This document shows positions 4,047 through 62,554 of a stretch of 64,000 bases of DNA, one piece after another. The DNA is from an uncultured Candidatus Poseidoniales archaeon. GTDB lineage: Archaea; Thermoplasmatota; Poseidoniia; Poseidoniales; Thalassarchaeaceae. Each line of letters begins with the position of its first letter. Positions within the stretch are counted from its first letter, which is position 1. The notes beneath the pieces are model-generated. The model did no database searches, was not told the DNA's origin, and was given only the letters and a program-made list of their open reading frames with translations. The stretch is from positions 14,032-78,031 of the forward strand of contig CAZLVU010000005.1 in the NCBI GenBank assembly GCA_964563355.1. The letters are read 5' to 3'. The translations under genes and the position numbers were made by a program.

Positions 4047-6308
4047 CTATTTCTTTCTTCTCTTGGATGCCTTGATACTCTTCTTTAGATTGGAAATTAG
4101 AGCGCTGGCATCAGATTTAGATATGGTTTCTATAGATTCAACTCTGACGATTTCCATCGCTTCGTCTATTGAAATTCCCAAATCTTCAGACATAGATCGA
4201 ATAGCATTAGTTTGTTTTTCGGTCGCCGGTGATGAATTATCCAAGGCAATTAGTTGCTCGATAACTCCACTGGCCGTTCCGCCCCTGCCACCAGTGAGGT
4301 CAGAAATATCTGCATGACCCATTTCACTTAGGAAACCAGATAATTCCAAATCTAGCTTGTCTACAAGCTTGATAATCAGACCTATTTGCTTCTCACTTGC
4401 GGAAATAGAACCGGATCCGTTCTCACCTAATTTGTCGATGGCGGCCTTAGCTTCAGCCCCCGTAAGCTCATCCGTACTCTTTCCACCTAGAATCATAGAG
4501 CGTTCACTCTCCTCCGTCCCCCCTAGTAGTCTTTCCAAGTACTCCTTTTGCCTAACAGTGGGTGCCTCTCTTCTTTTATCGAGTGCGGAATTGTGCATCT
4601 TTCGAAACAAATCCTCAAAATCTTGCCAAATAGTAGACGATTCAGCTTCACCGATTTCGATTTTGTCTAGACTCCGTTCCATAATTGCTGTGAAGTCAGT
4701 GGTGAATAATCCAGCATCGAAAAGAGTAGATTCAGAATAGTGGGGTGCGACGTCAAGCCATAGTGTTCTACCATTTTCTGTGGGAATTAGTGAAGACCCT
4801 TCTTTATCCAGGTATCCCTTCTGGGATAATTTAGTGATAGTAGAGACATATGTGGAGGGGCGACCTATTCCAGCTTGTTTCATGTGTTGCACAATTGAGC
4901 TTTCACTAAGCCTTCTTGGGGGCTTGGTAAAATCAGAAACCAATTCTGGAGGCTCATCTAGTTTCCATTCCGATCCTATATCAAATCCACAGGACGGTGG
5001 AGATGTTACTGCCTTGCTGGGGGAAACGCCTTCGAAGGCCTTCTCCCATCCAGCGTGGGTTCTCCAACTGGCAGTACCAACAATTTCTAGCTCTAAACCA
5101 TCACAGTTCAGCGATAGTCTCCTTCTCTCACTGATCGAGTTGGACATCTGGCTGGCTGCAAACCGAGCCCAAATCAAACTGTACAACTTAACCTCATCCG
5201 CCTCCAAATCTACAGAGTCAATTTTCGGATTTGTCGGTCTGATGGCCTCGTGTGCGTCCTGGATCTTGCCCGATCCCTTTTTCTTTTGCTCTCCGACGCC
5301 ATCACCCAAGAATTCGTCCCCAAATCTCTCAGTGATAATTTCGCGTATCTCAGATCTAGAGTTTGCACTTGTTCTGGTGGAATCGGTCCGTATGTAGGTA
5401 ATATGTCCGGTCTGATATAGAGATGTAGCGACCCGACTAGTTCTTCCAATAGGCCATCCAAGAGATGAATTGGCGGTTTGAAGCAATGTATCTGTGGTAA
5501 AGGGGGGATATGGCTTCCTTTTCACGGTCCCTTCTTTCACTGAACTTAGCGTAATCGTACGGGAATTGGTCAATACCTGATGCGCATTCTGTGCAAGCAC
5601 GCCGTCCGACGTTCTGTCGTATTGTGGCTTGCCATCGTCACCCCTCCAAGCATCGGGATCGTCGCTTTGATGGAAATTGACCCTGAGATCCACCCCGTTT
5701 GATTGCAGATTCACAGAATGGAACTCTATCGGGATATGAGCCTCCCGCTCAAGCTCTCTATTGACAACGAACCCCAATGTTGGAGTTTGTACCCGACCCA
5801 TTGATCTCAATTTCCACGATCTGCAAAATTTTGAACACCTGAAGCCAACTAAACGATCCATGAATCTCCTAACCATGGCTGCTTCAACTAAATCCATATC
5901 TAGTTCTCTGGGACTGTTTATTGCATCAGTTACTGCAGATTTGGTGATTTCATTGAAGGAAACTCTACTCACTTCATTAAATTCTGCGAAAATGATACTC
6001 AGCCTCCATGCAATGAACTCCCCCTCTCTATCTGGGTCAGTTGCAATGTAGACGTGATCGACTCCCGAAGAAACTGCCCTGCGCAGAATCTTGTCGATAA
6101 TTGACTCGGCCCTCTCAGTCCATGCCCACGGTGGATTTGGTAGTTTACCGGGCTTAGAAGCCCACAGTGCCTTTGAACTGTTCTTAGTACCATCGTTTGT
6201 CGGCAAATCTTGCACATGCCCGTTACATGCTTCAACAATCCAACCCCTCCCCAGGTATTTCTTGACGGTGCGAGCCTTGGCACGTGACTCCAGAATTACA
6301 AGTTTCAA
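4047..6308 (-). CDS. topA: DNA topoisomerase I (type IA) with a non-zinc C-terminal repeat region
   Basis: Toprim N-terminus (KLVILESRAKARTVKKYLG, DPDREGEFIAWRL) and the catalytic-Tyr region GHITYIRTDSTR. TTG start preceded by GGGGTGA. Confidence 0.9.
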   Translation of the reverse strand: MKLVILESRAKARTVKKYLGRGWIVEACNGHVQDLPTNDGTKNSSKALWASKPGKLPNPPWAWTERAESIIDKILRRAVSSGVDHVYIATDPDREGEFIAWRLSIIFAEFNEVSRVSFNEITKSAVTDAINSPRELDMDLVEAAMVRRFMDRLVGFRCSKFCRSWKLRSMGRVQTPTLGFVVNRELEREAHIPIEFHSVNLQSNGVDLRVNFHQSDDPDAWRGDDGKPQYDRTSDGVLAQNAHQVLTNSRTITLSSVKEGTVKRKPYPPFTTDTLLQTANSSLGWPIGRTSRVATSLYQTGHITYIRTDSTRTSANSRSEIREIITERFGDEFLGDGVGEQKKKGSGKIQDAHEAIRPTNPKIDSVDLEADEVKLYSLIWARFAASQMSNSISERRRLSLNCDGLELEIVGTASWRTHAGWEKAFEGVSPSKAVTSPPSCGFDIGSEWKLDEPPELVSDFTKPPRRLSESSIVQHMKQAGIGRPSTYVSTITKLSQKGYLDKEGSSLIPTENGRTLWLDVAPHYSESTLFDAGLFTTDFTAIMERSLDKIEIGEAESSTIWQDFEDLFRKMHNSALDKRREAPTVRQKEYLERLLGGTEESERSMILGGKSTDELTGAEAKAAIDKLGENGSGSISASEKQIGLIIKLVDKLDLELSGFLSEMGHADISDLTGGRGGTASGVIEQLIALDNSSPATEKQTNAIRSMSEDLGISIDEAMEIVRVESIETISKSDASALISNLKKSIKASKRRKK

Positions 6309-8993: not shown

Positions 8994-9946
8994 TGAATGA
9001 CCAGTCCTTTTTGGAAGACACTACCTCTGAATTACTCGCACTTTCAGATGCCTGCTCTCTTAGACTATCAAACCGTTATGCCGAGAGGGGCATGATTGCC
9101 TCACCAATTCCGCTGCCAATATTGGGAATTGACACCGAGGCCCCCGGAATCGCCACGCTTTGGGTGCAAGTACCCCAATCATTGGCTTCAGAATATAGGC
9201 CCGGACAGTATTTCATGTGCTGGAATCCCTATGACTCAACGGGAGGAATGAACAGATCCCACTTCAGCTCTGAGAAGCCATACAGCGTAGGGAATATGGG
9301 GCATGGTACTGATGGTCGGGTGTTTCTGGGATTTACTGTGAAAGATTTGGGCATCCAAAGCGGGGAACTTACAAGGTTGAGCACCGGAGATTGGTTGGCA
9401 ATAAGGGGGCCTTTCGGGACCTCATTTCCAAATTCTACCGACGGAGACAGGATGATACTAGTTTCCGGTGGAATTGGATCTACACCAATCCATATGGCCG
9501 CGTTGGCATGTCGAAACGCCTTGGGTGATCACGCTCGAATCGATGCTATAATGGGATTTCGAAATTCTGAAGAATCACATTATGTTTCTAGGATGGAAGC
9601 TGTTTGTGATACTGTGCAAATCACGACTGATGATGGGTCATTGGGATCACATGGTTTCCCAACAATCCACCTCCCCAATCTAATTGAGACGCCGCATACA
9701 GGTAAGACCAAGCTCTTCACATGCGGACCTGAACCAATGATGAAGGCTGTCCTCATGATGGCAATCGACGCTGGCATCGAGTCATATGCTGCCATGGAGA
9801 GGTATCTCCCATGCTCCGTTGCTGTTTGTGGACTTTGCATGGTGGGCGACCGACTCACTTGCATAGATGGGCCTGTTATGGGGGGTGATTGGCTGCTAGG
9901 TCAAGATGACTTCGGGAAACCACACATTGCTCACAGTCACACTTAA
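8990..9946 (+). CDS. pyrK: Dihydroorotate dehydrogenase 1B electron-transfer subunit (FAD/NAD-binding, 2Fe-2S)
   Basis: 4-nt overlap with the 1B catalytic gene. RPGQYFM flavin motif, LVSGGIGSTP NAD motif and the C-terminal Cys cluster CSVAVCGLCMVGDRLTCIDGP. Confidence 0.8.
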   Translation: MMNDQSFLEDTTSELLALSDACSLRLSNRYAERGMIASPIPLPILGIDTEAPGIATLWVQVPQSLASEYRPGQYFMCWNPYDSTGGMNRSHFSSEKPYSVGNMGHGTDGRVFLGFTVKDLGIQSGELTRLSTGDWLAIRGPFGTSFPNSTDGDRMILVSGGIGSTPIHMAALACRNALGDHARIDAIMGFRNSEESHYVSRMEAVCDTVQITTDDGSLGSHGFPTIHLPNLIETPHTGKTKLFTCGPEPMMKAVLMMAIDAGIESYAAMERYLPCSVAVCGLCMVGDRLTCIDGPVMGGDWLLGQDDFGKPHIAHSHT

Positions 9947-9969
9947 CGCTGGGAGCTCAAGGGAACAAT

Positions 9970-10353
9970 ATGGCACTTAGTCGAAGAGATCGTCTGCTGA
10001 CTGTGGGCATTGTCAGCTTTGCTGCTTTTGCCATTGTTTTCATGGGGGTAGATCCGGTGGTACAGTATTCTGTTGATGAGATACTCGACAATGCCGATGA
10101 ACATGAGGACAGTATGGTATTCGTAAGGGGAGCTGTAGCTTCTAACTCAACGGATGAAGATTCACGAACTTTCATAATCAATGGGCCCTCAAAATCAATT
10201 CTTGTCGATTACTCTGGAACTGCCGTACCAGATGGATATTCAGAGGGCATCACTATTTCCGTTAGGGGCATAATGGTTGATGACGATGGTACATGGAGAA
10301 TTAATGCGCAAGAAATTCAAACCGGCTGCCCATCTAAATATGAATCTGAGTAA
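9970..10353 (+). CDS. ccmE: CcmE-like heme chaperone, CxxxY variant
   Basis: N-terminal anchor (RRDRLLTVGIVSFAAFAIVF). OB-fold core is colinear with CcmE (VFVRGAVASNS, ILVDYSGTAVPDGYSEG, ISVRGIM). The C-terminal CPSKY sits where bacteria have HDENY. Confidence 0.6.
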   Translation: MALSRRDRLLTVGIVSFAAFAIVFMGVDPVVQYSVDEILDNADEHEDSMVFVRGAVASNSTDEDSRTFIINGPSKSILVDYSGTAVPDGYSEGITISVRGIMVDDDGTWRINAQEIQTGCPSKYESE

Positions 10354-10375
10354 TTGGGATTGTTCATAGGTGACT

Positions 10376-10697
10376 GGGGCGTGCCACTGACGGGCTAGGG
10401 GGAGAGTTGACGTGCTCTGTATTTCACAAATCGTCGAAAATGGTGACCCGAAGTTCGAGGGCGGCGCAGACGAGCCATTGGAACCTCACCAGTTGACGTC
10501 GATGTCTCGCCCCCGAGAGATCCAGGTTGGAAATATCGCATCCCGTAGGGAATGCGTGACGTCCTTACACCCGGGAACCAGGTCAGGCGCGGAAGCGAGC
10601 AGCCCGACCGGGGATGCTGGATGCCTCGGGATAGCGGGACGGAGGAGACCGGTGTCTAATTTCCTATGGTGACGAGCGTCCACCGAGAACATGCCCA
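10376..10697 (+). ncRNA. Signal recognition particle RNA (archaeal 7S type)
   Basis: Helix-8 signature GGGAACCAGGTCAGGCGCGGAAGCGAGCAGCCCGACC. 5' GGGCGTG (10377-10383) pairs with 3' CATGCCC (10690-10696). About 320 nt and locally GC-rich; the ends are approximate. Confidence 0.8.
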
Positions 10698-10698
10698 C

Positions 10699-11193
10699 CT
10701 ATTCCGGTACTGTGGAAAGTCCACCCATTGTACATATGGTAGCAAATTGACTCTTGGAAACAGGTTGGACCGACAGCCTCTGACCTCTCTTTAGCAAAGC
10801 CATCCCCTCTAATGCGGGGTTGCTTCTGAGATCTGGTAGCGCAACATTCTCAATAGGCATTACTGGCTCAATGTCTACCATCATCCATCGAGGATTTTCT
10901 GGGGTAGCTTTCGAATCAAAATAGTTTGAATCCGGATCCTGTGCAGTGTGATCTGGATACGCTTCTTTGCAAATCCTCGCGATACCCGCAATATGGGGGG
11001 GTTTGCAGTTCGAATGATAAAATAGTACGAGATCGCCAATAGACATTTGGTCTCTCATTATGTTTCGAGCTTGGTAATTCCTCACCCCATCCCAGTGAGT
11101 TGAGCCGTCATTGACTAAGTCTTCCCAGGGGTAGACGTGAGGCTCGCTCTTCATCAGCCAGTAATTTACCATACACTTCGATGGAAGTGCCAA
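10699..11193 (-). CDS. EVE (PUA-like) domain protein
   Basis: NYWLMKSEP..YPWEDL....THWDGVRNYQARNIMRD.MSIGDLVLFYHS matches the EVE/thymocyte-nuclear-protein fold signature. The likely start is the MVNYW Met at 11172. Confidence 0.8.
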   Translation of the reverse strand: MALPSKCMVNYWLMKSEPHVYPWEDLVNDGSTHWDGVRNYQARNIMRDQMSIGDLVLFYHSNCKPPHIAGIARICKEAYPDHTAQDPDSNYFDSKATPENPRWMMVDIEPVMPIENVALPDLRSNPALEGMALLKRGQRLSVQPVSKSQFATICTMGGLSTVPE

Positions 11194-11205
11194 AAATCAA
11201 TTTTC

Positions 11206-14178
11206 CTACCAAGCGTCTTCTGTTTTTCCAAATGCAAAGGAGGCATCAATGCCATCAATTTCATCTCTTGAGATAGCCCTCCTGAGGCCAGCGGTCTTTA
11301 CCATAGCATCCATCCCTCCAGTCAGTCCGAGATCAGAGGTTACCATGAAGGAATATATTGCGGGTAGTAGAAGTAATGCTGACAGTGATGCGATAATTAG
11401 CAGGATTATGATGACAGTTACGAATGGGGTGATTGCCTCAATTGGAATCCCATAGGCACAGGTTAAACCGGCTGCAGTTACGGTTGTAGCCTCAAACAAA
11501 CTCATTCCGGTGCTGGAACACGACGTCCTGATCGCTTCGATTGTACCGCCCCCTTCTTTGACACGGTTGGCAATATGGATTGAGAAGTCAATGCCCACGC
11601 CAACGAGAATGGACCCAATCATTACAGTCACTAGTGATAGGGACACGCCTCCAGAATCCATTACAAGCCATTGCATTGCTACGGTAAACCCTACTGGGAT
11701 AGTTGTAAGTAAGGCATAACGGACGTCTCTGAACACCATTGCCAGCGTGAAAATAGTGAAACCGAGGGCGAATGCCAAGGACGTCCATTGTGAATCGACA
11801 ATCAGTTTGTTAACCTCGATTGTTACCGAAGCTACGCCAATCAGCGAGTCGCCAGCTACCTCAATAGGATTGGATGAGTCGCCGGCCGCTTTAGCCCATG
11901 AGTTGATTTGCTCGGTGGTTTTCTCTGTAGCCCTTACATCCATGAATGGCATGTCAATGTAAATTAGCGTCTTCTGGTAATCAGGGGAAATGAATAGCTC
12001 CCGCATCTCCTCGGTCATACTATTGTAAAACACATACAGAAGGAAATTCTGAATCTGCCTGCCACCATCGTCTTCTTGGGCATCTAGAGTATCGAGTACG
12101 GTCCAAAATGAAACGTTGCCAGATTGCCCCCGGTTGAAAATCAAATCTGCAAGCTCTTTGATTGGATCAGGAAGTGGTTGGTCTTCGATCAAATCATTGA
12201 TTGGTGTACCGGATACGTTCACTCCGACCGCAATCGCCTTCATCAAAAATACGATAGATACGGCAGTAGCGTTGTCAACGTTGTTGCAATTAGTCTCTAA
12301 CTTCTCAATACCTTCCAAATTCGCATATGGGTGTTCTGCAGTCAAGCCCCCCAAACCCAATTCGGGATCTGCACGAATATCTGCTTTGACAAGGAGGAAT
12401 CCGGGTTGTCCTGCCTCAAACTCCTCTGAATACACCGCCATCTTCTGTACGGCGCCAACATCGTTTGGAGCCATTTTCAATAGATCGATATTTTCTTCAA
12501 CATTGTTTCTATTGTATCCTGCAGAAATTAGCATCAAGGAAAGGAAAATTACCAATGTTAACTTTGACCATTTAACGGGAATATTTACTGCAGCGACGAA
12601 GATTTTGGGTGGGGGATGAGACGGCTTTTTCAAGTCGAGGAGAATGGTGAGGTTGGGCACCATTATCATGGTCAAAACGTAAACTACAACGATTCCACCG
12701 GCCAAGGCCCAACCAACGGTTTGAATCGGTTTCATAGGTGCGAATGTTAGTGAAATGAAACCGATTATTGTCGTCATGGCGGAAAGAAATACCGCACGCC
12801 CGGTCGAATTGAGTGCGACGGACATTTTTTCTTGGGGCGTGCCTTTAGATTCTGCATATCTGTTAGTGATGTGCAAACCATATGAAACCCCTAGAGCCAG
12901 GACTATGGGGCCAACGAGGATTACAGTCATTGTAACTTCATAGTCTAATAATCCGATCAGGCCCAAGGTGACCCAAACAGCGCAAAGTGTAGGCAATCCA
13001 GCAATAATGATGACTTTGATTCCCTGGACGAAACGGATTCGACCTGTTTGCAACAAATCACAATGGAATATAAACAACCCCAATGCAACGGCCGCTCCGC
13101 CTACCGGAAATACTTCCCAGAATAACTTGAATGACTCCTCAGTTACCGCATTTGTAAGGGGTGCCGGCCCAGTAAGTGTCATGGTTAGGGAGATCTCGCC
13201 CCAGCCTTCTTCCTCAGAGACCTTGTCGATCCGTTCTTGTGTAAGATCAACGATTGCCCCCACAGTCATATTTTCTCCCAAATCGTCCGCAATGCCAATA
13301 ATTATCACGGCCCGGTTCCAAAAGAACGCCCGTTCAGCTTCCTTGATTCCGTCTCCATCCAAATCCCGACCGACATCTCGAACAAGCTTATCGAGAGCGT
13401 TCTGAGGCATCTCTTGTAAGATCTGATCAACTCGTTCTTGCTCGTCGGGTATTGCATAATTTCCGATAAGGTCACTTTGAGCATCAATAGTGTCGTTAAT
13501 CTCGTCGGAAAGTTGTTGGTTTCCTGTAGCTTCAGCTAATCCAGAAAAGAAGGCTTTGACAACCCTGCCACCGCTCGAGTTTACTTCCTTGATCACGGTG
13601 GATATAGAAAGGACGTATACTACGTTATCTTCGGCGCCTCCATCGTTCATTACAGGATTCAGCTCTCTTTCGATCCTGTCGATTTTGTCGAGGATTGGAA
13701 TCTCAGTAACGTTATTTTCCTCTGATTCAACGTAGATAACCATGACATTCGTTGTCCAATCCTGCTCGACTTGTGCAATCAGGTTCTTGACGCTATCTGG
13801 CTTGTCATCATTTGGAAGATAGACTTCCAAGTCTCCGTTTACGTTTAGGGCAGGTTCGGTATTACAGAAGCTGTATTCGAATCCGTCCCTGCAGTCCTTA
13901 ATTCCAGAATGAGGGAGTAGTAGTATTGTAAATACGAGTGAAACGGCGACTGCACTTTTTGGAAACATGGTAAGTAAAGAAGCAGCATTAGTCTCGTCCA
14001 TTTTCCTTCTAAAAAGGTTAGGCAGCCTAGCCAGTGATTTCTGCGCTCCGCCCGCATCTATTGATCTGATCTTATCACCAACATCAGTGGCCTTCTCTAG
14101 CCCCTTGGAATATGCAGAAGCGAAGCGAGTTTCACTCGTTTTACCTTCACCCACGTCGTCCCTTTGCATGCTCCTCAA
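11206..14178 (-). CDS. RND-superfamily exporter (MMPL/SecDF-like, two 6-TM bundles with large loops)
   Basis: 990 aa with two hydrophobic bundles (residues about 350-520 and 800-950), each preceded by a large soluble domain. This is the typical MMPL/RND layout. Confidence 0.75.
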   Translation of the reverse strand: MRSMQRDDVGEGKTSETRFASAYSKGLEKATDVGDKIRSIDAGGAQKSLARLPNLFRRKMDETNAASLLTMFPKSAVAVSLVFTILLLPHSGIKDCRDGFEYSFCNTEPALNVNGDLEVYLPNDDKPDSVKNLIAQVEQDWTTNVMVIYVESEENNVTEIPILDKIDRIERELNPVMNDGGAEDNVVYVLSISTVIKEVNSSGGRVVKAFFSGLAEATGNQQLSDEINDTIDAQSDLIGNYAIPDEQERVDQILQEMPQNALDKLVRDVGRDLDGDGIKEAERAFFWNRAVIIIGIADDLGENMTVGAIVDLTQERIDKVSEEEGWGEISLTMTLTGPAPLTNAVTEESFKLFWEVFPVGGAAVALGLFIFHCDLLQTGRIRFVQGIKVIIIAGLPTLCAVWVTLGLIGLLDYEVTMTVILVGPIVLALGVSYGLHITNRYAESKGTPQEKMSVALNSTGRAVFLSAMTTIIGFISLTFAPMKPIQTVGWALAGGIVVVYVLTMIMVPNLTILLDLKKPSHPPPKIFVAAVNIPVKWSKLTLVIFLSLMLISAGYNRNNVEENIDLLKMAPNDVGAVQKMAVYSEEFEAGQPGFLLVKADIRADPELGLGGLTAEHPYANLEGIEKLETNCNNVDNATAVSIVFLMKAIAVGVNVSGTPINDLIEDQPLPDPIKELADLIFNRGQSGNVSFWTVLDTLDAQEDDGGRQIQNFLLYVFYNSMTEEMRELFISPDYQKTLIYIDMPFMDVRATEKTTEQINSWAKAAGDSSNPIEVAGDSLIGVASVTIEVNKLIVDSQWTSLAFALGFTIFTLAMVFRDVRYALLTTIPVGFTVAMQWLVMDSGGVSLSLVTVMIGSILVGVGIDFSIHIANRVKEGGGTIEAIRTSCSSTGMSLFEATTVTAAGLTCAYGIPIEAITPFVTVIIILLIIASLSALLLLPAIYSFMVTSDLGLTGGMDAMVKTAGLRRAISRDEIDGIDASFAFGKTEDAW

Positions 14179-48220: not shown

Positions 48221-48787
48221 GTGGGAGCTTGTGAGTTGTGCGGTCTCGAAGGCGTTGCAACTCAGGCGGCAATTGCGTCACAGACCTCCGTGGATTGTTG
48301 CAAAGGATGCATTGTGTCAATGGGCCTTGAAGTTAAACGTCAACCTAGGCCTCGAAGTAATCCACCCGCTACCCAAAATCAGGTTACCAGCAGGGTAGTT
48401 TCAGGAATTGATATTATGACCAAAGAGGAAATGGAGCTTGCTTCTGATTTCCATTCAAAGATAAGGATGGCGCGTGAAGTTAAGGGTTGGTCTCAATCCG
48501 ATCTGGCCAGGAGGATTAATGAGAAATCATCTACCATCCAGAAGGCTGAAAATGGAATCAGGCCTACTGATTTGGTACTCAAGAAAATTTCCAAATCACT
48601 AGGCCTGAACTTATTCATTGAATCCAGTGCTAACCACCACAGAGTCGTGACGGGCAATATATCGAGAGACTTGACAATCTCAGATGCTGGTGATTCCACC
48701 ATCCAACCTACGAAAGCCAAGAAGATCAAGAAAAAGGGTAGGAAGCTCGGGGTCTCCAGATCTGGAGCCAGATCAAGGAGAAAATAG
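48221..48787 (+). CDS. mbf1: Archaeal multiprotein bridging factor 1 (zinc ribbon plus Cro/C1 HTH) with a basic C-terminal tail
   Basis: CELCG...CCKGC zinc ribbon, HTH GWSQSDLARRINEKSSTIQKAENG, and the tail KKIKKKGRKLGVSRSGARSRRK. Confidence 0.8.
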   Translation: MGACELCGLEGVATQAAIASQTSVDCCKGCIVSMGLEVKRQPRPRSNPPATQNQVTSRVVSGIDIMTKEEMELASDFHSKIRMAREVKGWSQSDLARRINEKSSTIQKAENGIRPTDLVLKKISKSLGLNLFIESSANHHRVVTGNISRDLTISDAGDSTIQPTKAKKIKKKGRKLGVSRSGARSRRK

Positions 48788-48788
48788 A

Positions 48789-49313
48789 TTGATTGGGGTG
48801 CCACTTCACGTAATACATCTGGATCAAGATGATCCCAAGAAGTGCACAGCTAGGAAACTTGAGGCACGAGGTCAGGCCAAACTCCACCAATCAGTAAAAT
48901 TGGCCCCTCGCAGAGGGTTTCTTCTGAATCCGAATGCGGAAACCATTCTAGGTCCAGAAGACAGGGGGATGATCGATATTGGTGGATCATTAGTCGCTCT
49001 AGACTGCTCATGGAAGAATATCAGTCAATCATTGGAAATTATCCACAATAGAACAAGTTTGGAAGGCAGGCGTCTACCATCCTTACTAGCTGCCAATCCT
49101 GTTTCATGGGGCAAGCTGGGGAGGCTGTCTACAGTGGAGGCTCTTGCCGGATCTTTGGTCATACTGGGCCATTTTGAGCAGGCAAAAGAAATTCTGAGGG
49201 GTTTCCCCTTCGGCAATCGTTTTCTTGATCTTAATAAGGAACCCCTCGAGGCTTACTCAAGTGTTGTTTCCAGGGATGATTTAGAGTCCGTGCAATCGGA
49301 CTTCTTCTATTGA
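48789..49313 (+). CDS. tsr3: 16S rRNA aminocarboxypropyltransferase Tsr3 (DUF367)
   Basis: HLDQDDPKKCTARKLEARG, DCSWKNI, LLAANPVSWGK and STVEALA. The TTG at 48789 starts 1 nt after the mbf1 stop. The track ORF (48684) would overlap mbf1 and is rejected. Confidence 0.75.
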   Translation: MIGVPLHVIHLDQDDPKKCTARKLEARGQAKLHQSVKLAPRRGFLLNPNAETILGPEDRGMIDIGGSLVALDCSWKNISQSLEIIHNRTSLEGRRLPSLLAANPVSWGKLGRLSTVEALAGSLVILGHFEQAKEILRGFPFGNRFLDLNKEPLEAYSSVVSRDDLESVQSDFFY

Positions 49314-49323
49314 CCAACATAAT

Positions 49324-50577
49324 ATGCAAGCGCGTATTCCCTCGACCGAGATAATGGCTGCTGATGATGATGAACCTAACATGTTCCAACATATGGCCAC
49401 AATGGCAGTTCACACGGGGGAGATTCACGATTCGTCAGGAGCGCATATTGCTCCGATCCACCAAACCTCAACCTACGTTTTTGAGGATTCTGGGGCAATA
49501 GAATCCTGGGCAACCGGTGAATCCGAAGCCCACGTGTACTCTCGTGTTGGCAACCCCAATAGATCATCACTTGCTCGTAAGCTGGCCGCTCTCGAGGGAG
49601 TGGGAGTCGAAGGAGCCCCGGTTACTGCGGAGATTTTCGCATCTGGGATGGGTGCAGTGAGTGCCTCAATTCTAGGTCTAGCCAGAGCAGGAGATCACGT
49701 CATCACTCAATCTGTACTATATGGGACTACAAATCATCTTTTTTCTGCTATCCTACCGAACTATGGGATTTCCAACAGCAGAGTCCCGCTATTGCAACCG
49801 GATCTACTAGAGGAAGAATTGGCTGCAAACCCTGACACTAAGGTCATATTTCTTGAGACGCCAGCAAATCCAACTATGACGATAATTGACATCTCTAAGA
49901 CGGTAAAGATCGCAAATTCGCATGGTGTTGACGTAATCGTCGACAATACGTTCGCTACACCTGTGCTTCAACGACCCCTGGCCATGGGTGCAAACGTAGT
50001 CGTGCACAGTACTACGAAGTTCATCAACGGCCATGGTACGGTGATAGGTGGTGCTCTAGTCAGTAGGGATCCGGAATTCATCCTAAATGGCGGTGGGGCA
50101 CTGGTTCGCTACATAGGAGCTGTGCCAAGTCCTTTGGACTGTTGGATGACTAACATCGGCCTCAAGACGCTCCCCCTCCGCATGAAGCAGCACTGCACAA
50201 ATGCACGCATTATTGCTGAATTCCTTAATTCCCATCCCAAAGTCAACGTCACTCACTGGCCCGGTCTGAAGAGCCATCCTCAGCATGAAATTGCAGCTCG
50301 CCAAATGGATGATTTTGGTGCTATGATGTCCATAGAACTGGGCAACTACCAATCAGCAACCAGATTTATGGATGGTTTGGAATTGTGCTCCCTTGCGGTC
50401 AGTCTGGGCAATGTGGACACACTAGTGCAACATCCCGCATCGATGACTCACAGATTAGTCTCCGAAGAAGAGAAGGCTGCGTCAGGAATCACAGAAGGAT
50501 TAGTGCGTATTTCTGTCGGAATCGAGGGCGCCGATGACCTAGTGGCGGATTTTGATCGCGCATTATCACAAGTATGA
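49324..50577 (+). CDS. PLP-dependent Cys/Met-metabolism enzyme (O-acetylhomoserine sulfhydrylase / methionine gamma-lyase family)
   Basis: YSRVGNPN, DNTFATP, the PLP-Lys motif HSTTKFINGHG, and LGNVDTLVQHPASMTH. Confidence 0.8.
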   Translation: MQARIPSTEIMAADDDEPNMFQHMATMAVHTGEIHDSSGAHIAPIHQTSTYVFEDSGAIESWATGESEAHVYSRVGNPNRSSLARKLAALEGVGVEGAPVTAEIFASGMGAVSASILGLARAGDHVITQSVLYGTTNHLFSAILPNYGISNSRVPLLQPDLLEEELAANPDTKVIFLETPANPTMTIIDISKTVKIANSHGVDVIVDNTFATPVLQRPLAMGANVVVHSTTKFINGHGTVIGGALVSRDPEFILNGGGALVRYIGAVPSPLDCWMTNIGLKTLPLRMKQHCTNARIIAEFLNSHPKVNVTHWPGLKSHPQHEIAARQMDDFGAMMSIELGNYQSATRFMDGLELCSLAVSLGNVDTLVQHPASMTHRLVSEEEKAASGITEGLVRISVGIEGADDLVADFDRALSQV

Positions 50578-50633: not shown

Positions 50634-50825
50634 ATGGCACAAGGTACGGTTAAGTGGTTTAATCAAATAAAGGGATATGGATTTATTGAGCAGGATGGAG
50701 GGGACGACCTCTTTGTCCACAAATCCGAGGTAGAGGGGACGATTCGTGACGGCGACTCTGTAGAGTTTGAGGTTGGTGAGGGACCTAAGGGTCCAAACGC
50801 TGTAAATGTCAGCAAAATCGACTGA
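50634..50825 (+). CDS. csp: Cold-shock protein (CspA family)
   Basis: [15 protein letters not shown] (RNP1) and DLFVHKSE (RNP2). 63 aa. Confidence 0.9.
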
Positions 50826-51945: not shown

Positions 51946-52980
51946 TCACTCCGAAAGTCTTTGGATTAGGTCGGCCTTCTTCCCGGAGACGGGTTTTTCT
52001 GACTCTTTGAGGAGTTGCTTGAGTTCGGCTACGGAGAGGGAACTGTATATCCTCTCGACCAAAACTGCCTTTGTTCCGCTAGATTCTATATTCAATGACT
52101 TCGAAATTTCGACAAGTTCAGCCTTGAGCCTACTACCCAGTCCGATGAGATTGGATGAATCGGGTTCTGGGGCAACAACCTCTCTTTCATTATCTCCCTC
52201 TTCCATTAATTCCTCAGGTTGATCATCAGATTCGATCACTTCCTCGGGAGTGGCGTCTTCGGATAACTCTGAATCAGCAATTTCCACGTCCGATTCCTCC
52301 TCGGATGATTTCTGGTCTTCTATTGCTGATTTTTCGTCTGCCTTAATCTGCTCAAGTGTGGGGCCATCGTCGATCACTACTCCGGACTGAATTAGTTGGC
52401 TGCGTCTGAAGAAGACCATCCTAACGGGTTGGATTTTGGAGATGGCCTTGCCTACTCTTTCTTCCAGGGAACCGTCAAGCAGACTACTCTGAACCTCAAT
52501 CCAAGTGCTCTTAGAGCAGAATTTGATAACCTCGTTCCTAGCTATGGTTCTCGTTTCCTGTTTTTGGCTACCCTTTACCCTTGATCTGGTTACGATGAAT
52601 GGTTTTAGTCTGATGAAATATCCATCATCAGTAATGACATCGATTGAATCGTCGATCTTGCCCCTCTCACGGCGAATCTGACGCCTGACAAAATCCTTCA
52701 TTGTGTCATGACCAATGAATTCAGTTAAGGCATCGTTTCCAACTACTTCGTGGACCCTGAATTGGATCTTAACATGCATCTTTGAGAAATCGCCATCTAG
52801 TTCATTTTGCATTACCTCGTAATGCCGCCCAACCAGCATCTGTTCTTCCTCGGCGATGGTCTCCCCGATCACCTTGAATGACCAGGGGTTGCGAGGTGCC
52901 CTAATCGAGAACCAACGTTTGGCCTTCCATTTGTCCTTCTGTCTTCGAGCCGCTGCTCTAGCCGATGCACCCTTGGCCAT
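51946..52980 (-). CDS. rps3ae: 30S ribosomal protein S3Ae (eS1) with an acidic linker and two C-terminal SAP/HeH-like motifs
   Basis: MAKGASARAAARRQKDKWKAKRWFSIRAPRNPW....GRHYEV is the S3Ae core. The C-terminus carries LKAELVEISKSLNIESSGTKAVLVERI and LSVAELKQLLKESEKPVSGKKADLIQRL. The start is set at Met19 of the track ORF. Confidence 0.8.
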   Translation of the reverse strand: MAKGASARAAARRQKDKWKAKRWFSIRAPRNPWSFKVIGETIAEEEQMLVGRHYEVMQNELDGDFSKMHVKIQFRVHEVVGNDALTEFIGHDTMKDFVRRQIRRERGKIDDSIDVITDDGYFIRLKPFIVTRSRVKGSQKQETRTIARNEVIKFCSKSTWIEVQSSLLDGSLEERVGKAISKIQPVRMVFFRRSQLIQSGVVIDDGPTLEQIKADEKSAIEDQKSSEEESDVEIADSELSEDATPEEVIESDDQPEELMEEGDNEREVVAPEPDSSNLIGLGSRLKAELVEISKSLNIESSGTKAVLVERIYSSLSVAELKQLLKESEKPVSGKKADLIQRLSE

Positions 52981-53112
52981 TGAATAGACTCCTATTTCGG
53001 GGGCTGCCCCGTTTGCGGGCCGTCCGACCTGCAACCAGTATTTGAACGAAATGCCATCAGCATACTATCCAAATTACATCTAAATGAGGATCATGTTTCC
53101 TCTGGACGCACC

Positions 53113-53571
53113 ATGGGACTGCACGGCGGAGCTTGGAGGGTTCACACCAGTGCTCTTGACGACGACGGTTTAATCCTGAATGCGCTTAGCTGGCTGTGTG
53201 GAAAGGAATCTCAAATTTCTATAGAAAATGAGAAGTCCGCTCTTGGTGCACCCATGAAAACCGTGGTTTGCCAAATGAATGGTAAACGTGCCAAGGAATC
53301 TCTGAGTAATCTTCCCGAAGAGGAGTTACAATCCCTGATTGAGGCAGGATTGGAATCTCTAATTGACGAAGATAAGTTTCTTCACATCAGAATCTCGCTT
53401 TCTGAGTTGGTTAGAGGTTATGTAACAATTGCGAATTCAAAGGAATCAATAGTCAAAGGGAGGTTCAAGTTGGAAGTATACCCCGGTCAAAATGCTATTC
53501 AGATAGTTAACGATCTGTTTGAAGAATTGCGCGAGTGTGAAAAATCGAACACAAGAATTGATATGCCCTAA
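53113..53571 (+). CDS. Hypothetical protein, possibly a DUF54/COG1931-type archaeal RNA-binding protein
   Basis: The size (152 aa) and pattern (VHTSALDDDGLILNALSWL..., KGRFKLEVYPG) recall COG1931. Recognition is from memory only. Confidence 0.4.
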   Translation: MGLHGGAWRVHTSALDDDGLILNALSWLCGKESQISIENEKSALGAPMKTVVCQMNGKRAKESLSNLPEEELQSLIEAGLESLIDEDKFLHIRISLSELVRGYVTIANSKESIVKGRFKLEVYPGQNAIQIVNDLFEELRECEKSNTRIDMP

Positions 53572-54913: not shown

Positions 54914-55900
54914 CTAGCTCTTCCGTCCCCTTGCTGTCCCAAGTTTGCGTGAGCTCTTCCTTTTTCTCCGGCGGGCAGGTTCTTCCGAAGATTGTTCTGC
55001 TACTGTGCCTCCGAATGTAATAGACCCGCTTTCAATTAGCTGCTCAGAGAGGGAGTCTGCAAGATCATCGTCCTGATCGGGGGTCTTTAGCGCCTGCCTT
55101 ACTGAATCATTGTGTTCCCTGACCATCCTCTCTCTCTCTTCATACTGAGACTTCAGCTCTTTTCTAATTTCAGTGACCTTGGTCTGCATTTCTACAGTAT
55201 TTGCATGTACCTCATCGGCCTTTTCTCTCTCCTTAACAAAGATTGAATGAAGCCTATCGCCCTCGCCTCTGAGGAAATCTCTCTCTTCCAGCATTGGTTT
55301 GATCTCCTCCCAAATCTGGTCAGCGAGTTTGTTCTTCTCTATCATCAACTGGTGCTCATTGTCTGCTTCGGCTCTGAGACGCTGTATGGATTCATCCATT
55401 TCACCTAGGTCGATGGTAATGAGTTGGTGTTCCTCCACCGAAGGAATCAGTTCGTCTCTGCGAGCCATCAACGATCTCAGCTTCTTGATCAAACTATTCT
55501 CCTTGTCAAGCGAGAGGGACCCGTCCGTCATGATCTGGTTCTCGATCCTGTCTATTTCACTAACTGTTTCAGACAATTGAATGACAACAGATTTGCTTGG
55601 CCCGTCACCCCTCCTGCCCTTCTTCCTAGACGTAAGCTCTCTAACGTGTTTCTGAATCTCATCTCTCCTAGTTTGATGGATCTTAGCTAAAGCCCGAGTG
55701 TCCTTCTGCTCTTCCATACGTTCCTTGATTGCTTTTCTAAGCTCGGCGCCCTGGTTTTGGACTGAGTCCCGAGAATCGGCTGCTCTCCTTGCAGACTCGT
55801 TATGTGCATTCCTTTGATCCCTCATTCTCCTGAGCTTGGATTCCATTGCGTGGAGTCTGTTCCTGAGGTCTTCACCCACGGGTGATTCTTCCTCGCCCAT
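54914..55900 (-). CDS. Coiled-coil protein, paralogue A (COG1340-like) with a basic C-terminal tail
   Basis: Heptad-rich K/E/R sequence, central IDRIENQIMTDGSLSLDKENSLIKKLRSL, C-terminal ESGSITFGG and the tail RRRKRKSSRKLGTARGRKS. Confidence 0.6.
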   Translation of the reverse strand: MGEEESPVGEDLRNRLHAMESKLRRMRDQRNAHNESARRAADSRDSVQNQGAELRKAIKERMEEQKDTRALAKIHQTRRDEIQKHVRELTSRKKGRRGDGPSKSVVIQLSETVSEIDRIENQIMTDGSLSLDKENSLIKKLRSLMARRDELIPSVEEHQLITIDLGEMDESIQRLRAEADNEHQLMIEKNKLADQIWEEIKPMLEERDFLRGEGDRLHSIFVKEREKADEVHANTVEMQTKVTEIRKELKSQYEERERMVREHNDSVRQALKTPDQDDDLADSLSEQLIESGSITFGGTVAEQSSEEPARRRKRKSSRKLGTARGRKS

Positions 55901-59831: not shown

Positions 59832-60668
59832 ATGGACAGTGAAACACTGCTATCCCTCGGACCGGAAGAGCTAGCGAACGCCCTCTTATTGCGTAGGAAG
59901 GTGCTGAAGGAAAGCCTTCCGGGTGTGATTAGAAATCTCGAGGCTGAGGAAGAAGCCCTTGCGCCAAGACTAGAAAGATCTGAGAAATCATATCAACAGG
60001 CAAATGAGAAAGTTGCACGTCTTAAGGATGTTCGAGATGGGAGTCAAAGTGAAGCCGGATCAATTCTAAATTCTGTAAAATCTTCTAGGGAAAGACTACT
60101 GGAAACCGGGGGTTTAATCAATCTAGATCCACGATGGAAGAAAGAGAAGCTTTTTGAAAAACTAGATGAAATAGAGCAAAAAATCCAGACTTCCGCTTTA
60201 GATCACAAAGCTGAGAGGTTAATGCTAGACAAGAGAAAGAAGCTAATTGAGGAAAATGAAAGTTGGCTGATGGATAGAAAAGAGTCAAACCCTGAAATGT
60301 CTGATTATATTGAGAATCGGCGGAAGATGTCAAAATTGTACAAGGGCGCCGACAAAGCACACCGAAAGATGCTTGAGGCGGTTGAGAAAGCTCAGCCAAT
60401 TTACGAAAAAAGGATGGCTCTGATGCTAGATTTGAGGGAAGTCAGGAGTCAACTAGACCGGGCAAGGGAGTTATTGTCCCAGTCAGACAAGGCAATAGAA
60501 CACTGGCAAAGGAGGTTGGAAGAAGGCTTTGATGACCTAGGTCGTGGATTCCCAGACCTACTGGCTGACAGCAAGATTGTTTCTGACGGTGGAGCTTCTA
60601 CATTTGCAAGGAAGGTCACGCCCAAGAAAAGGCAGAAAATTAGCAACGAAGGAAGTGAAGGAGAATGA
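59832..60668 (+). CDS. Coiled-coil protein, paralogue B (COG1340-like)
   Basis: Central LDEIEQKIQTSALDHKAERLMLDKRKKLIEE and a basic C-terminus KVTPKKRQKIS. ATGA overlap with the next gene. Confidence 0.55.
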   Translation: MDSETLLSLGPEELANALLLRRKVLKESLPGVIRNLEAEEEALAPRLERSEKSYQQANEKVARLKDVRDGSQSEAGSILNSVKSSRERLLETGGLINLDPRWKKEKLFEKLDEIEQKIQTSALDHKAERLMLDKRKKLIEENESWLMDRKESNPEMSDYIENRRKMSKLYKGADKAHRKMLEAVEKAQPIYEKRMALMLDLREVRSQLDRARELLSQSDKAIEHWQRRLEEGFDDLGRGFPDLLADSKIVSDGGASTFARKVTPKKRQKISNEGSEGE

Positions 60669-61630
60669 GCAAGTCCCAGAATAGCCTAGATTGGGGTGAT
60701 CTCGAAGAATTTGATAGGGATGAAATTGATCAATTAATTAGCGGGCAAAAAAGGACCCTCTCAACATTGGAAAACGAGAGGAGAGGATTACGGGCAGAGA
60801 GGAAGGACCAGGTAGAGATAGTGAAAGCGCTCAGATCAGTTCTGGGAAAGGTGCAAACGGCAGACTCTGGGCGTAAAAGGCTCCTAAGTAGCTTTCACAA
60901 ATCAAGGAAGCTTGCTAATAAGAAGAAGAAACTTAGAGACTCGATAAATGAATTAATTCCACCCCCAACAAAAATCTTATTGGAATGGTTAAATGAAACC
61001 CATTCAAGACTGACCACAATAGACAATGACCTTACCTCCGTTCCAATGTTGAACAGAGAACTCGATGCGTTCAGCCGATTCTTTGAGATTCAGTCGGCAA
61101 TCAAAAGAAAGAGTGTCGCGGAATTAGCACATAGCGAATATGCATCTCATATCAAGGACCTGAAAGCGATAACGAAACAGCTTGATCAGAATAAGGATGA
61201 TGTTGCCAGCAGCATCTCTGAATTAGAGAAGGGCGGCAACCAGTTGGGGAAAGAGGATGTTAACAGGAAAGAGGTGCGGAAAATCAGCAATCGAATCTCT
61301 TACATTGACAAAAGGATGGATGAAATAAATGTTGAAAAGCGAATTACCAAAAAGGAATTGGGGCGGTTTGAAGCCTATCATCGTATTTCTTTTAGTAGGA
61401 AAGGCCGAGTAAAGATTTCAGACATCAAGGATATTGCCGTCAGTGGCGGGATGCTGACTACAGCAGAAATGGGGGCTCTGCTCGATTCGGGAAGTCTGTC
61501 AAACCTAGAACGAGAAACTGGAGGTAAAACTGAGGAGGAATTCAAAACTCCAAAGAAGAAGATTAGAAGGCTTGGAGTCTCAAGAAGAGGTAGCAGAAAA
61601 GGCAATCTGGCAAGACGAAAGGAAGAATGA
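60665..61630 (+). CDS. Coiled-coil protein, paralogue C (COG1340-like) with an MBF1-like basic tail
   Basis: Heptad-rich sequence, C-terminal SGGMLTTAEMGALL and the tail PKKKIRRLGVSRRGSRKGNLARRKEE. Confidence 0.55.
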   Translation: MSKSQNSLDWGDLEEFDRDEIDQLISGQKRTLSTLENERRGLRAERKDQVEIVKALRSVLGKVQTADSGRKRLLSSFHKSRKLANKKKKLRDSINELIPPPTKILLEWLNETHSRLTTIDNDLTSVPMLNRELDAFSRFFEIQSAIKRKSVAELAHSEYASHIKDLKAITKQLDQNKDDVASSISELEKGGNQLGKEDVNRKEVRKISNRISYIDKRMDEINVEKRITKKELGRFEAYHRISFSRKGRVKISDIKDIAVSGGMLTTAEMGALLDSGSLSNLERETGGKTEEEFKTPKKKIRRLGVSRRGSRKGNLARRKEE

Positions 61631-61696
61631 TCGCATTTGGGTATCTTTGGTATTGCTTAAATGGGTTTCCAAATTCGGCTACTATGAGGACTTGCG

Positions 61697-62554
61697 TTGG
61701 GGCTAAATCACACGAGTCTCGAAGCAATCTTCGAGCCTGTTACTGAAAGGGTTTCTGCGAGGTTATCTGATTTCAAGACCAAGCGTGATGAGTTTAATTC
61801 AGATGTAAGAGTCCACCTTGACAAAAGAAACGAAATTAACAGGCAAGTCAAGGAGCTAATTACAGAGGTGCAAAATCAAAAGGAAATTCGTAACCATGCT
61901 AATTCCAAAGTTCGTGATTTGAAAAAGCTTAGATTGCAAAGATCGAATGAATTGAAGGAGCTTCGTGCAATACTAAGGGACAGCAAACCATCCAAGGCAG
62001 AGAGGGCCAAGAACGGAAAGTCTTCCCAAAAAATAAGGGCAATGATGAACGGTCTGGAATGGAAGCACCAAACCGGTCAGATAAATCCAAGCAAAGAGAA
62101 GGAGTTCATCTCCAAGATGAAGAAACTCCAGAAGGAGTATAACGAGGTAAAGGCAATTGAGGATGCAAATAGTTCCAAAATTCTCAACAAAGTCAGAGCA
62201 GCGGAGTCTGTGCAAGCTGAGGCCCACAAGTCCGTCGAGGAAGCCGTAGTTTCTGCCCAAGAAGCTCATGACCTTATGATTGAGTTATCCGATGAGGTCG
62301 ATAGGCTCAGGAGTCTTGCTAATTCGGAGCATATCGATCTTACTAAGATGAAGAAGAAGGCAGATGATTTACACAGCAGATACATTGTGTCACTTCGTTG
62401 CATTCACTCAATGCAAGATATGCTGAAAATATTAGACTCGAAACAGAGGTTTGACCACGGAGATGAAAAAGTGGAGGTTTCTGACCTCATGTCGAGGCTA
62501 ATGTCTGGAGACACCTTGTCGACTGAAGAGTTGATGTCACTACAGAGGAATTAA
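61697..62554 (+). CDS. Coiled-coil protein, paralogue D (COG1340-like)
   Basis: RDEFNSDVRVHLDKRNEINRQVKEL, central MNGLEWKHQTGQINPSKEKEFISKMKKLQKE, and C-terminal SGDTLSTEELMSLQ. Confidence 0.6.
   Translation: MGLNHTSLEAIFEPVTERVSARLSDFKTKRDEFNSDVRVHLDKRNEINRQVKELITEVQNQKEIRNHANSKVRDLKKLRLQRSNELKELRAILRDSKPSKAERAKNGKSSQKIRAMMNGLEWKHQTGQINPSKEKEFISKMKKLQKEYNEVKAIEDANSSKILNKVRAAESVQAEAHKSVEEAVVSAQEAHDLMIELSDEVDRLRSLANSEHIDLTKMKKKADDLHSRYIVSLRCIHSMQDMLKILDSKQRFDHGDEKVEVSDLMSRLMSGDTLSTEELMSLQRN

Follow-up and report, generated by a model that had tools for sequence, protein, structure and literature searches.

A basic C-terminal peptide common to MBF1 and two coiled-coil proteins of Poseidoniales archaea, and its possible docking on the ribosome

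Why should proteins of unrelated folds end in closely related basic peptides? The question is raised by a 64,000-nucleotide stretch of DNA from an uncultured Candidatus Poseidoniales archaeon (GenBank assembly GCA_964563355.1, contig CAZLVU010000005.1, positions 14,032 to 78,031 of the forward strand; the whole stretch is called the window here). In this window the helix-turn-helix (HTH) protein MBF1 and two coiled-coil proteins, C and A, had been predicted from the letters of the sequence to carry similar basic tails. The tail coordinates and peptides given in that original prediction proved exact on re-checking: MBF1 ends in KKIKKKGRKLGVSRSGARSRRK, C in PKKKIRRLGVSRRGSRKGNLARRKEE and A, which is encoded on the minus strand, in RRRKRKSSRKLGTARGRKS, each followed directly by the stop codon (Table 1). 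The three tails have in common a core, R-[KR]-[LIF]-G-[VT]-[STA]-R-(x)-G, with a run of lysines and arginines before it. A single core had originally been proposed for all three proteins; this describes MBF1 and C well, but in A the motif is distinct and less strict, R[KR][LIF]GT.RG, and lacks the spacer residue.

Anatomy, specificity and conservation of the tails

The three protein families have the same layout: a conserved fold comes first, next a linker that is poorly conserved, and last a conserved tail. Conservation was expressed as the mean majority-residue fraction of each region. For MBF1 this was 0.74-0.76 in the folded domains, 0.34 in the linker of 12 residues and 0.82 in the tail; the corresponding values were 0.67-0.71, 0.35 (16-18 residues) and 0.75 for C, and 0.75-0.78, 0.32 (13 residues) and 0.65 for A. 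The motif stands at a fixed, family-specific distance from the C-terminus, with seven residues after the core in the case of MBF1. The last residues of the tails are RRK, RKEE and RKS, and none of the tails contains an aromatic residue. In the AlphaFold2 models of MBF1 (a zinc ribbon, a disordered linker and the HTH domain) and of C (overall predicted local distance difference test score, pLDDT, 76; helices at residues 18-243, residues 282-321 disordered), linker and tail together have a pLDDT of ~40-55, and the tails are predicted to be disordered, tethered C-terminal peptides.

The motif is rare. Translated in six frames, the window has 127,996 residues, among which [KR]LG[VT][SA]R occurs three times against 0.09 occurrences expected, each time 4-14 residues ahead of the stop of a long open reading frame (ORF). 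Only 4 of the 64 non-overlapping ORFs of the window have a strongly basic C-terminus, defined as at least 9 K/R in the last 30 residues; three of them carry the motif, and the fourth encodes topoisomerase I. The latter (4047-6308, minus strand; TIGR01051, E=2.7e-124) has the basic end KKSIKASKRRKK without the LG core, and serves as a negative control. The tails of MBF1 and C are identical at 9 of 11 positions, a value reached by 3 of 20,000 composition-matched shuffles (p ~1.5e-4).

Searches beyond the window gave the same picture. A looser pattern, run in six frames over 450 kb of related loci, matched only MBF1 and the syntenic A orthologues. With a 41-column profile of the tail, applied to 578 kb in six frames, MBF1 scored 32-57 bits, C 43-52 bits and spurious ORFs less than 10 bits, and a search of 1.84 billion representative proteins gave 15 matches at E<=0.001, all of them MBF1 or C proteins or fragments of these. 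No sequence in the PDB matched the profile, even at E<=10. Twelve pattern matches were obtained in viral contigs, none of which was confirmed, so viral mimicry is not indicated. The motif is therefore real and specific and, among the families searched, carried only by the MBF1, A and C families.

The tail is also kept across relatives, which were listed to the number of 120 for each family. In MBF1, R[KR][LIF]G[VT][STA]R is present in 118 of the 120, at 49-91% identity, and R174, G177, V178, R180, G182 and R184 are invariant in an alignment of 24 sequences. C has the strict core in 111 relatives and a loose form in 116, at 48-96% identity; the core is continued by a family-specific GSR[KQ]G..A.R[KR]E, and the core of the C protein itself has the conserved element PPP..IL.EWL..T..LT.IDNDLT. 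For A, whose tail consensus is K[KR]KxSR[KR][LIF]GT[STR]RG[KR][KR]x, the strict core was found in 75 relatives, the core with position 6 left free in 109, and the loose form in 117. In the one genome pair compared, the L/I/F residue of the core did not co-vary between tails (L in the MBF1 of locus L018, I in the C protein P0180; n=1). The two findings that had been named in advance as fatal to the idea, a motif common among basic tails or absent from orthologues, were thus not made: the motif is rare in the window, in the 450 kb of related loci and in the 1.84 billion representatives, and the MBF1, C and A orthologues of relatives carry it.

When genomes were scanned with MBF1, 31 loci came back; every one of them bears the tail and has the same gene order, and they belong to Poseidoniales, Thalassarchaeaceae or unclassified marine archaeal metagenome-assembled genomes. 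The most divergent tail-bearing clusters have the source names Thalassarchaeaceae or Poseidoniales, and all identifiable carriers of the tail are Poseidoniales. Since the genome scan gave Poseidoniales-type loci only, the statement that the tail is absent outside this order, in sister lineages such as Marine Group III and other Thermoplasmatota, rests on the family models and on the search of representatives.

On what level is this similarity maintained? The codons originally quoted, AAG CTC GGG GTC TCC AGA in mbf1 and AGG CTT GGA GTC TCA AGA in C, are correct, and the DNA of the three tails has little identity beyond what the amino acids require. Across 30 orthologous loci, each invariant residue of the mbf1 tail is written with 4-5 synonymous codons (arginine with AGG, AGA, CGT, CGA and CGG, glycine and valine with all four of theirs, serine with all four TCN codons), which places the constraint on the amino acids: it is as a peptide that the tail is held by purifying selection. 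The evolutionary part of the original prediction, namely that the tails are kept alike as peptides and do not stem from a recent duplication of DNA, is correct: synonymous sites are saturated both in the window and across the 30 loci.

There is one exception. The final Arg-Arg pair of mbf1 is written AGG AGA in 28 of 30 loci, whereas the other arginine codons vary, and the tsr3 start codon (GTG, ATG or TTG) lies a few bases past the mbf1 stop in 29 of 30. AGGAGA thus doubles as a Shine-Dalgarno-like site for tsr3, and mbf1 and tsr3 are a pair tightly coupled in translation. The tsr3 start in the window is most likely TTG at 48789 or GTG at 48798. An ORF of 209 amino acids that begins at 48684 and overlaps the tail is probably an untranslated over-extension, given the position of the Shine-Dalgarno-like hexamer and the orthologue starts past the mbf1 stop.

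Carrier families and origin of the tails

The HTH domain of the window MBF1 is matched by PF01381 (E=1.3e-11, residues 81-131) and also matches the PDB chains of EDF1/Mbf1 and of S. solfataricus MBF1. Against the archaeal MBF1 (aMBF1) family TIGR00270, residues 4-155 align with profile positions 2-154 of 159 at E=3.4e-24; the score of 85.5 bits lies under the curated equivalog cut-off of 110. Close relatives are labelled as TIGR00270 family or aMBF1 by their sources, and the pan-mbf1 synteny holds. In 24 orthologues there is little or no variation at the zinc ribbon cysteines C4, C7, C26/C27 and C30, and the model has a beta-strand ribbon. We therefore class the window protein, on sequence grounds, as a divergent aMBF1 orthologue. 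The canonical C-terminal motif of aMBF1 is [TS]-[LIVMF]-G-[DEN] (Marrero Coto et al. 2011, PMC3062615). The window protein has T-I-S-D at this place, with S for G; T152, I153 and S154 are invariant in the 24-sequence alignment and D155 is kept in at least 90% of it. The match to TIGR00270 stops at T-I-S-D (residue 155), the place where canonical aMBF1 ends, and the basic tail lies beyond this model, so the tail, located past the published motif, is not that motif.

The coiled-coil proteins form a set of four, A to D. The match of D to PF23435 (DUF7121) has 56.1 bits and covers profile positions 44-303 of 307, up to the last residue of D; A reaches 28.9 bits against a gathering score of 29, and its orthologues have precomputed PF23435 matches. 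C has no Pfam match, but orthologues of B do match DUF7121. The orthologues of D are tail-less, and D ends where the extension of C starts, as placed by a local match between the C-termini of C and D. When the four ORFs were compared by pairwise BLAST, A and D matched at E=0.002, the short C-terminal match of C and D had E=0.02, and A against C was not significant. As pairwise BLAST was weak, A and C were compared by profiles. With hhalign the C and A families align collinearly through 256 columns (E=1.4e-4, probability 53%), LLESGGLSSL of C being aligned with LLESGSITFGG of A and the two tails with each other. The coiled-coil proteins had been called paralogues. This stands for A and D, which match DUF7121, while the paralogy of C with them rests on the hhalign result and on gene order.

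A and C are probably old paralogues, as far as these alignments go, and would have inherited the tail from one ancestral coiled-coil tail. The simplest reading of B, which has a basic patch without the core, and of D, which has no tail, is that they lost it or never had one. The fold of MBF1 is unrelated to the coiled-coils, and its tail would thus have been captured long ago from a C-like gene or have arisen by convergence, two histories that the saturated synonymous sites make indistinguishable.

Some further features of the set can be recorded here. B ends in KKRQK / KKSRKASKKEK without an LG core, possibly a decayed tail. C and D have the C-terminal element [VI]SD[IL]...SG..L[ST]..E[LM]..L (61400-61500 and 62470-62551), and at the equivalent position A and B have G[GS][AS][IS]TF[GA]. 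These DUF7121 elements, compared as 'G.TLS.EEL' / 'SITFGG' with the aMBF1 motif T-[LIV]-G-D (TISD here), loosely recall it; the likeness is suggestive only, and hints at an older common C-terminal element. D had no match in the PDB.

Genomic neighbourhood

In Poseidoniales the order of genes is conserved as pan <> mbf1-tsr3 ... S3Ae ... ferredoxin-pdxS >< A ... B-C-D >< orf-L30e-rpoA2-rpoA1-rpoB, and pan is divergent from and adjacent to mbf1 in 30 of the 31 loci. A neighbourhood of this kind, with PAN, Tsr3, S3Ae, L30e and RNA polymerase, is compatible with a role in translation or transcription without proving it. The features of the window that concern the tails and their carriers are listed in Table 1.

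Table 1. Positions of the tails, their carriers and the adjoining tsr3 gene in the window
Feature	Coordinates	Strand	Basis
mbf1: N-terminal zinc ribbon, disordered linker, HTH_3, TISDA, variable linker, basic tail	48221..48787	+	PF01381, TIGR00270, AlphaFold2 layout
LTISDA, counterpart of the aMBF1 C-terminal motif with S for G	48671..48688	+	End of TIGR00270 match and residue conservation
Variable tether from TISDA to tail, ~12 residues	48689..48724	+	Conservation 0.34 against 0.82 for the tail; pLDDT <50
MBF1 basic tail, KKIKKKGRKLGVSRSGARSRRK and stop; core RKLGVSR at 48740-48760	48719..48787	+	118/120 orthologues
AGGAGA, last two Arg codons of mbf1, Shine-Dalgarno-like for tsr3	48776..48781	+	AGG AGA in 28/30 loci
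tsr3, small-subunit rRNA aminocarboxypropyl (acp) transferase family	48789..49313	+	PF04034, E=2.5e-34
Coiled-coil A, DUF7121/COG1340-like	54914..55900	-	PF23435, E=9.4e-7; syntenic in 16 loci
A tail, RRRKRKSSRKLGTARGRKS; core RKLGTAR at 54926-54946	54917..54973	-	Family consensus
Coiled-coil B, basic C-terminal patch, no LG motif	59832..60668	+	Orthologues match DUF7121
Coiled-coil C, long helical hairpin, small C-terminal helical region, variable linker, tail	60665..61630	+	AlphaFold2, hhalign
C tail, PKKKIRRLGVSRRGSRKGNLARRKEE; core RRLGVSR at 61565-61585	61550..61627	+	111/120 orthologues, strict core
Coiled-coil D, canonical DUF7121, tail-less	61697..62554	+	PF23435, E=4.9e-15

B, C and D stand in tandem (59832-62554, plus strand; ~9160-11900 in loci L032-L034), with the stop of B and the start of C overlapping in ATGA, and they are convergent with an unknown ORF that is followed by the L30e-rpoA2-rpoA1-rpoB operon. 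The stops of pdxS (plus strand) and A (minus strand) are convergent with zero intergenic bases between them (54913/54914), an arrangement kept in 16 loci. In ribosomal protein S3Ae (eS1; 51946-53034, minus strand) there is a long linker of acidic, low-complexity sequence, together with one SAP domain or two at the C-terminus (PF02037, E=1.1e-13). All three orthologues that were checked have this extension (L032 1240-2268, L033 1339-2241 and L034 1449-2357), and the gene occurs in 21 related loci. This acidic extension, unusual for a ribosomal protein, is a conceivable acidic counterpart of the basic tails. Beside S3Ae lies a small conserved ORF (53113-53571, plus strand), the orthologues of which have a weak match to PF01877 'RNA_binding'. 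Between tsr3 and an MTAP-like gene are found an O-acetylhomoserine sulfhydrylase-like gene (49324-50577, plus strand) and a bacterial-type cold-shock gene (50634-50825, plus strand); tblastn located them in none of the 31 related loci, so the pair may be a local insertion.

Possible partners of the tail and comparison with known systems

What could the tails bind? We propose that they are one lineage-specific short linear motif that was added, in Poseidoniales, past the normal end of aMBF1 and of DUF7121-type coiled-coils. Carried on a non-conserved linker of 12-18 residues, the motif would be a tethered docking peptide, and all three tails would dock their carriers on one common structured polyanionic partner. 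The original suggestion that the peptide sends the coiled-coil proteins to the same partner as MBF1 was reasonable for a proposal drawn from sequence. Extensions rich in Arg, Lys, Gly and Ser are the usual device with which ribosomal proteins grip rRNA. We tentatively favour small-subunit (SSU) rRNA as the common partner, with a probability of about 0.4, on the strength of this kind of peptide composition, of the coupling of mbf1 to the gene of an SSU rRNA modification enzyme, of the binding of MBF1 to 30S and 70S, and of the site taken by its HTH. According to PMC7486125, which cites Blombach 2014, aMBF1 binds 30S and 70S through the HTH; the HTH of EDF1/Mbf1 is placed beside uS3, with h16 and h33 on either side, and the final ~15 residues of that protein are unresolved (PMC7486125). 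With the HTH wedged between h16 and h33, and the residues after it flexible and unresolved, a basic extension at this point would naturally reach rRNA. The MBF1 tail would then be an extra anchor beside the HTH, which in homologues sits at the entry channel for mRNA, and through the same peptide the coiled-coil proteins would come to ribosomes as well.

Several observations weigh against this reading. The link to the ribosome is on the MBF1 side only, through the literature and the mbf1-tsr3 operon; no evidence links A or C to ribosomes, either in the literature, where our search returned nothing on the function of COG1340/DUF7121, or in the fold search, in which the C model gave only generic coiled-coil arms in the PDB with Foldseek (SMC, SH3BP5 and chemoreceptors), none of them at E<=0.001. 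The HTH of archaeal MBF1 alone is reported to be sufficient for ribosome binding, so the tail is not needed for it. The invariant G and V and their spacing suit a protein pocket and an RNA site equally well. The tail of A, compared with that of MBF1 or of C, has 6/11 identities, as does about one shuffle in four, which is not significant taken alone. The likeness of MBF1 and C therefore stands on the window alone, while A needs outside support; its case is made by the position of the motif, by family-wide conservation and by the profile alignment that pairs the A and C tails. In a few lineages, moreover, the A tail has decayed to RRLRTTRG or RKPKSFRGRGE. A-type tails score 5-22 bits on the tail profile against the ~36 needed in the search of 1.84 billion proteins, so that carriers as divergent as A would be invisible there and others may exist. 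The genome scan covered Poseidoniales-type loci only.

The tails could, instead, be generic clamps for nucleic acid, be it the DNA of the nucleoid or any RNA, that stick MBF1 and SMC-like coiled-coils to chromosome or transcripts with no meaning specific to the ribosome. MBF1 is an HTH protein that was historically regarded as a transcription cofactor, the K/R content of the tails is very high, and the sole other strongly basic C-terminus of the window is that of topoisomerase I; the B-C-D genes adjoin the operon of rpoB, rpoA1, rpoA2 and L30e, and the best fold matches of C, though non-specific, are the coiled-coil arms of SMC/Smc5-6. We nevertheless consider such a clamp unlikely. Non-specific electrostatic tails usually drift, but here G, V, R, G and R and their spacing are invariant across orthologues that are 45-60% identical. 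The tails have neither the GRP core of the AT-hook nor RGG repeats, and both archaeal and eukaryotic MBF1 are documented on ribosomes. A protein partner is similarly improbable. In this explanation a Poseidoniales-specific protein would dock on the motif or modify it, and the three carriers would in this way be co-regulated and not localised on RNA; candidates would be an enzyme that modifies the conserved Ser/Arg (a kinase or a methyltransferase), an AAA+ unfoldase, of which PAN is a neighbouring example, or an acidic surface, for instance the extension of S3Ae. A fixed short core, invariant Gly, Val and Ser, a flexible tether and a fixed distance from the C-terminus are indeed the classic anatomy of a short linear motif, pan is the divergent neighbour of mbf1 in nearly all loci, and S3Ae, with its lineage-specific acidic linker and SAP domain, belongs to the same conserved neighbourhood. 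No candidate partner emerged, however. HbYX, the PIP box and other known archaeal C-terminal motifs are absent from the tail, the tail profile has no match among PDB sequences, and the acidic linker of S3Ae is itself not conserved in sequence, so it cannot explain the invariant G-V-S-R-x-G.

The two remaining explanations deny that the peptide matters, or that the likeness does, and we give both almost no credence. An element of the nucleotide sequence at the 3' ends of the genes (a ribosome-binding site, a terminator or a small RNA) accounts for the last two codons of mbf1, conserved as the Shine-Dalgarno site of tsr3; for the rest it is refuted, since all other tail codons vary synonymously with their amino acids fixed, the three tails have little DNA identity, and no gene downstream of C or of A is coupled to it. 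Barely more credible is a chance resemblance of unrelated low-complexity basic tails. A by itself is no closer to the other two than composition-matched shuffles are, but for MBF1 and C chance is refuted by the shuffle test, by the excess of the motif over expectation with every occurrence at a C-terminus, by the zero off-target matches in the 578 kb of six-frame translation or the 1.84 billion representatives, and by conservation of the tail throughout the families.

A bolder form of the ribosome proposal, which we hold to be quite unlikely, makes the tail an address label that takes MBF1, A and C to the same SSU site, close to the entry channel for mRNA or to the collision interface. If this were true, COG1340/DUF7121 proteins would be ribosome-associated scaffolds, sensing or tethering stalled or collided ribosomes, for example, and archaea would assemble such machinery through common short linear motifs, as eukaryotes do. 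Both aMBF1 and COG1340/DUF7121 are broadly conserved in archaea, and, at least for the planktonic archaea that are most abundant in the surface ocean, a strongly selected putative docking peptide common to them is a rare clue in the sequence that both act on one partner. The motif is limited to a single uncultured order, with a function that we infer, but it offers a concrete reagent, a peptide of 20 residues for pull-downs and binding assays. It is also a case in which unrelated proteins of one archaeal order have gained a modular short linear motif, a mode of evolution documented mainly in eukaryotes.

How does the tail compare with known systems? Like the C-terminal motif of aMBF1, the counterpart of which in the window protein is T-I-S-D, it is a short element after the HTH that is conserved family-wide; unlike it, the tail is a further ~30 residues, outside TIGR00270, basic and not acidic or neutral, and common to a second family. 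The basic end of eukaryotic Mbf1/EDF1 also comes directly after the HTH and is flexible and unresolved in cryo-electron microscopy (cryo-EM; of the 148 residues of EDF1, 24-133 are modelled), but it has no sequence similarity to the tail, the match to the PDB chains stopping at the HTH, and is not found on other proteins. The tail of yeast Mbf1 is dispensable according to the literature, a further difference from the Poseidoniales MBF1 tail. On the coiled-coil side, D matches PF23435, as do orthologues of B, A matches it just below the gathering score, and C is probably collinear with A, but the canonical DUF7121/COG1340 domain ends tail-less, as D does, and it is the A and C subfamilies of Poseidoniales that have the tail added.

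The basic extensions of ribosomal proteins and motifs of the nuclear localization signal type are likewise disordered peptides rich in K, R, G and S, which thread into rRNA and become ordered on it; the proposed action of the tail is modelled on theirs. These extensions are family-specific and belong to stoichiometric ribosomal proteins, whereas here one motif is carried by non-ribosomal proteins of two folds. With the AT-hook and extended AT-hook, which bind nucleic-acid grooves, the tail has in common a short basic peptide and a glycine-containing core flanked by K/R; the R-G-R-P core is absent, there is no proline, and the conserved hydrophobic-G-V-S-R signature is unrelated. The AT-hook GRP was found in none of the three tails or their orthologues. 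There are no RGG/RG box repeats, each tail having at most a single R-x-G or R-G, and the HbYX motif of the 20S proteasome and the PIP box of PCNA, Qxx[LIM]xx[FY][FY], do not occur in the tails. With the defining residues absent, the tail is not an AT-hook, an RGG box, an HbYX motif or a PIP box. A literature search gave nothing on the peptide strings, and recent cryo-EM papers on the archaeal ribosome yielded nothing about MBF1. The tail thus belongs to a known class, that of short linear motifs and basic C-terminal extensions, and it appears to bring to that class a sequence, a distribution and a pairing of carriers that have gone undescribed.

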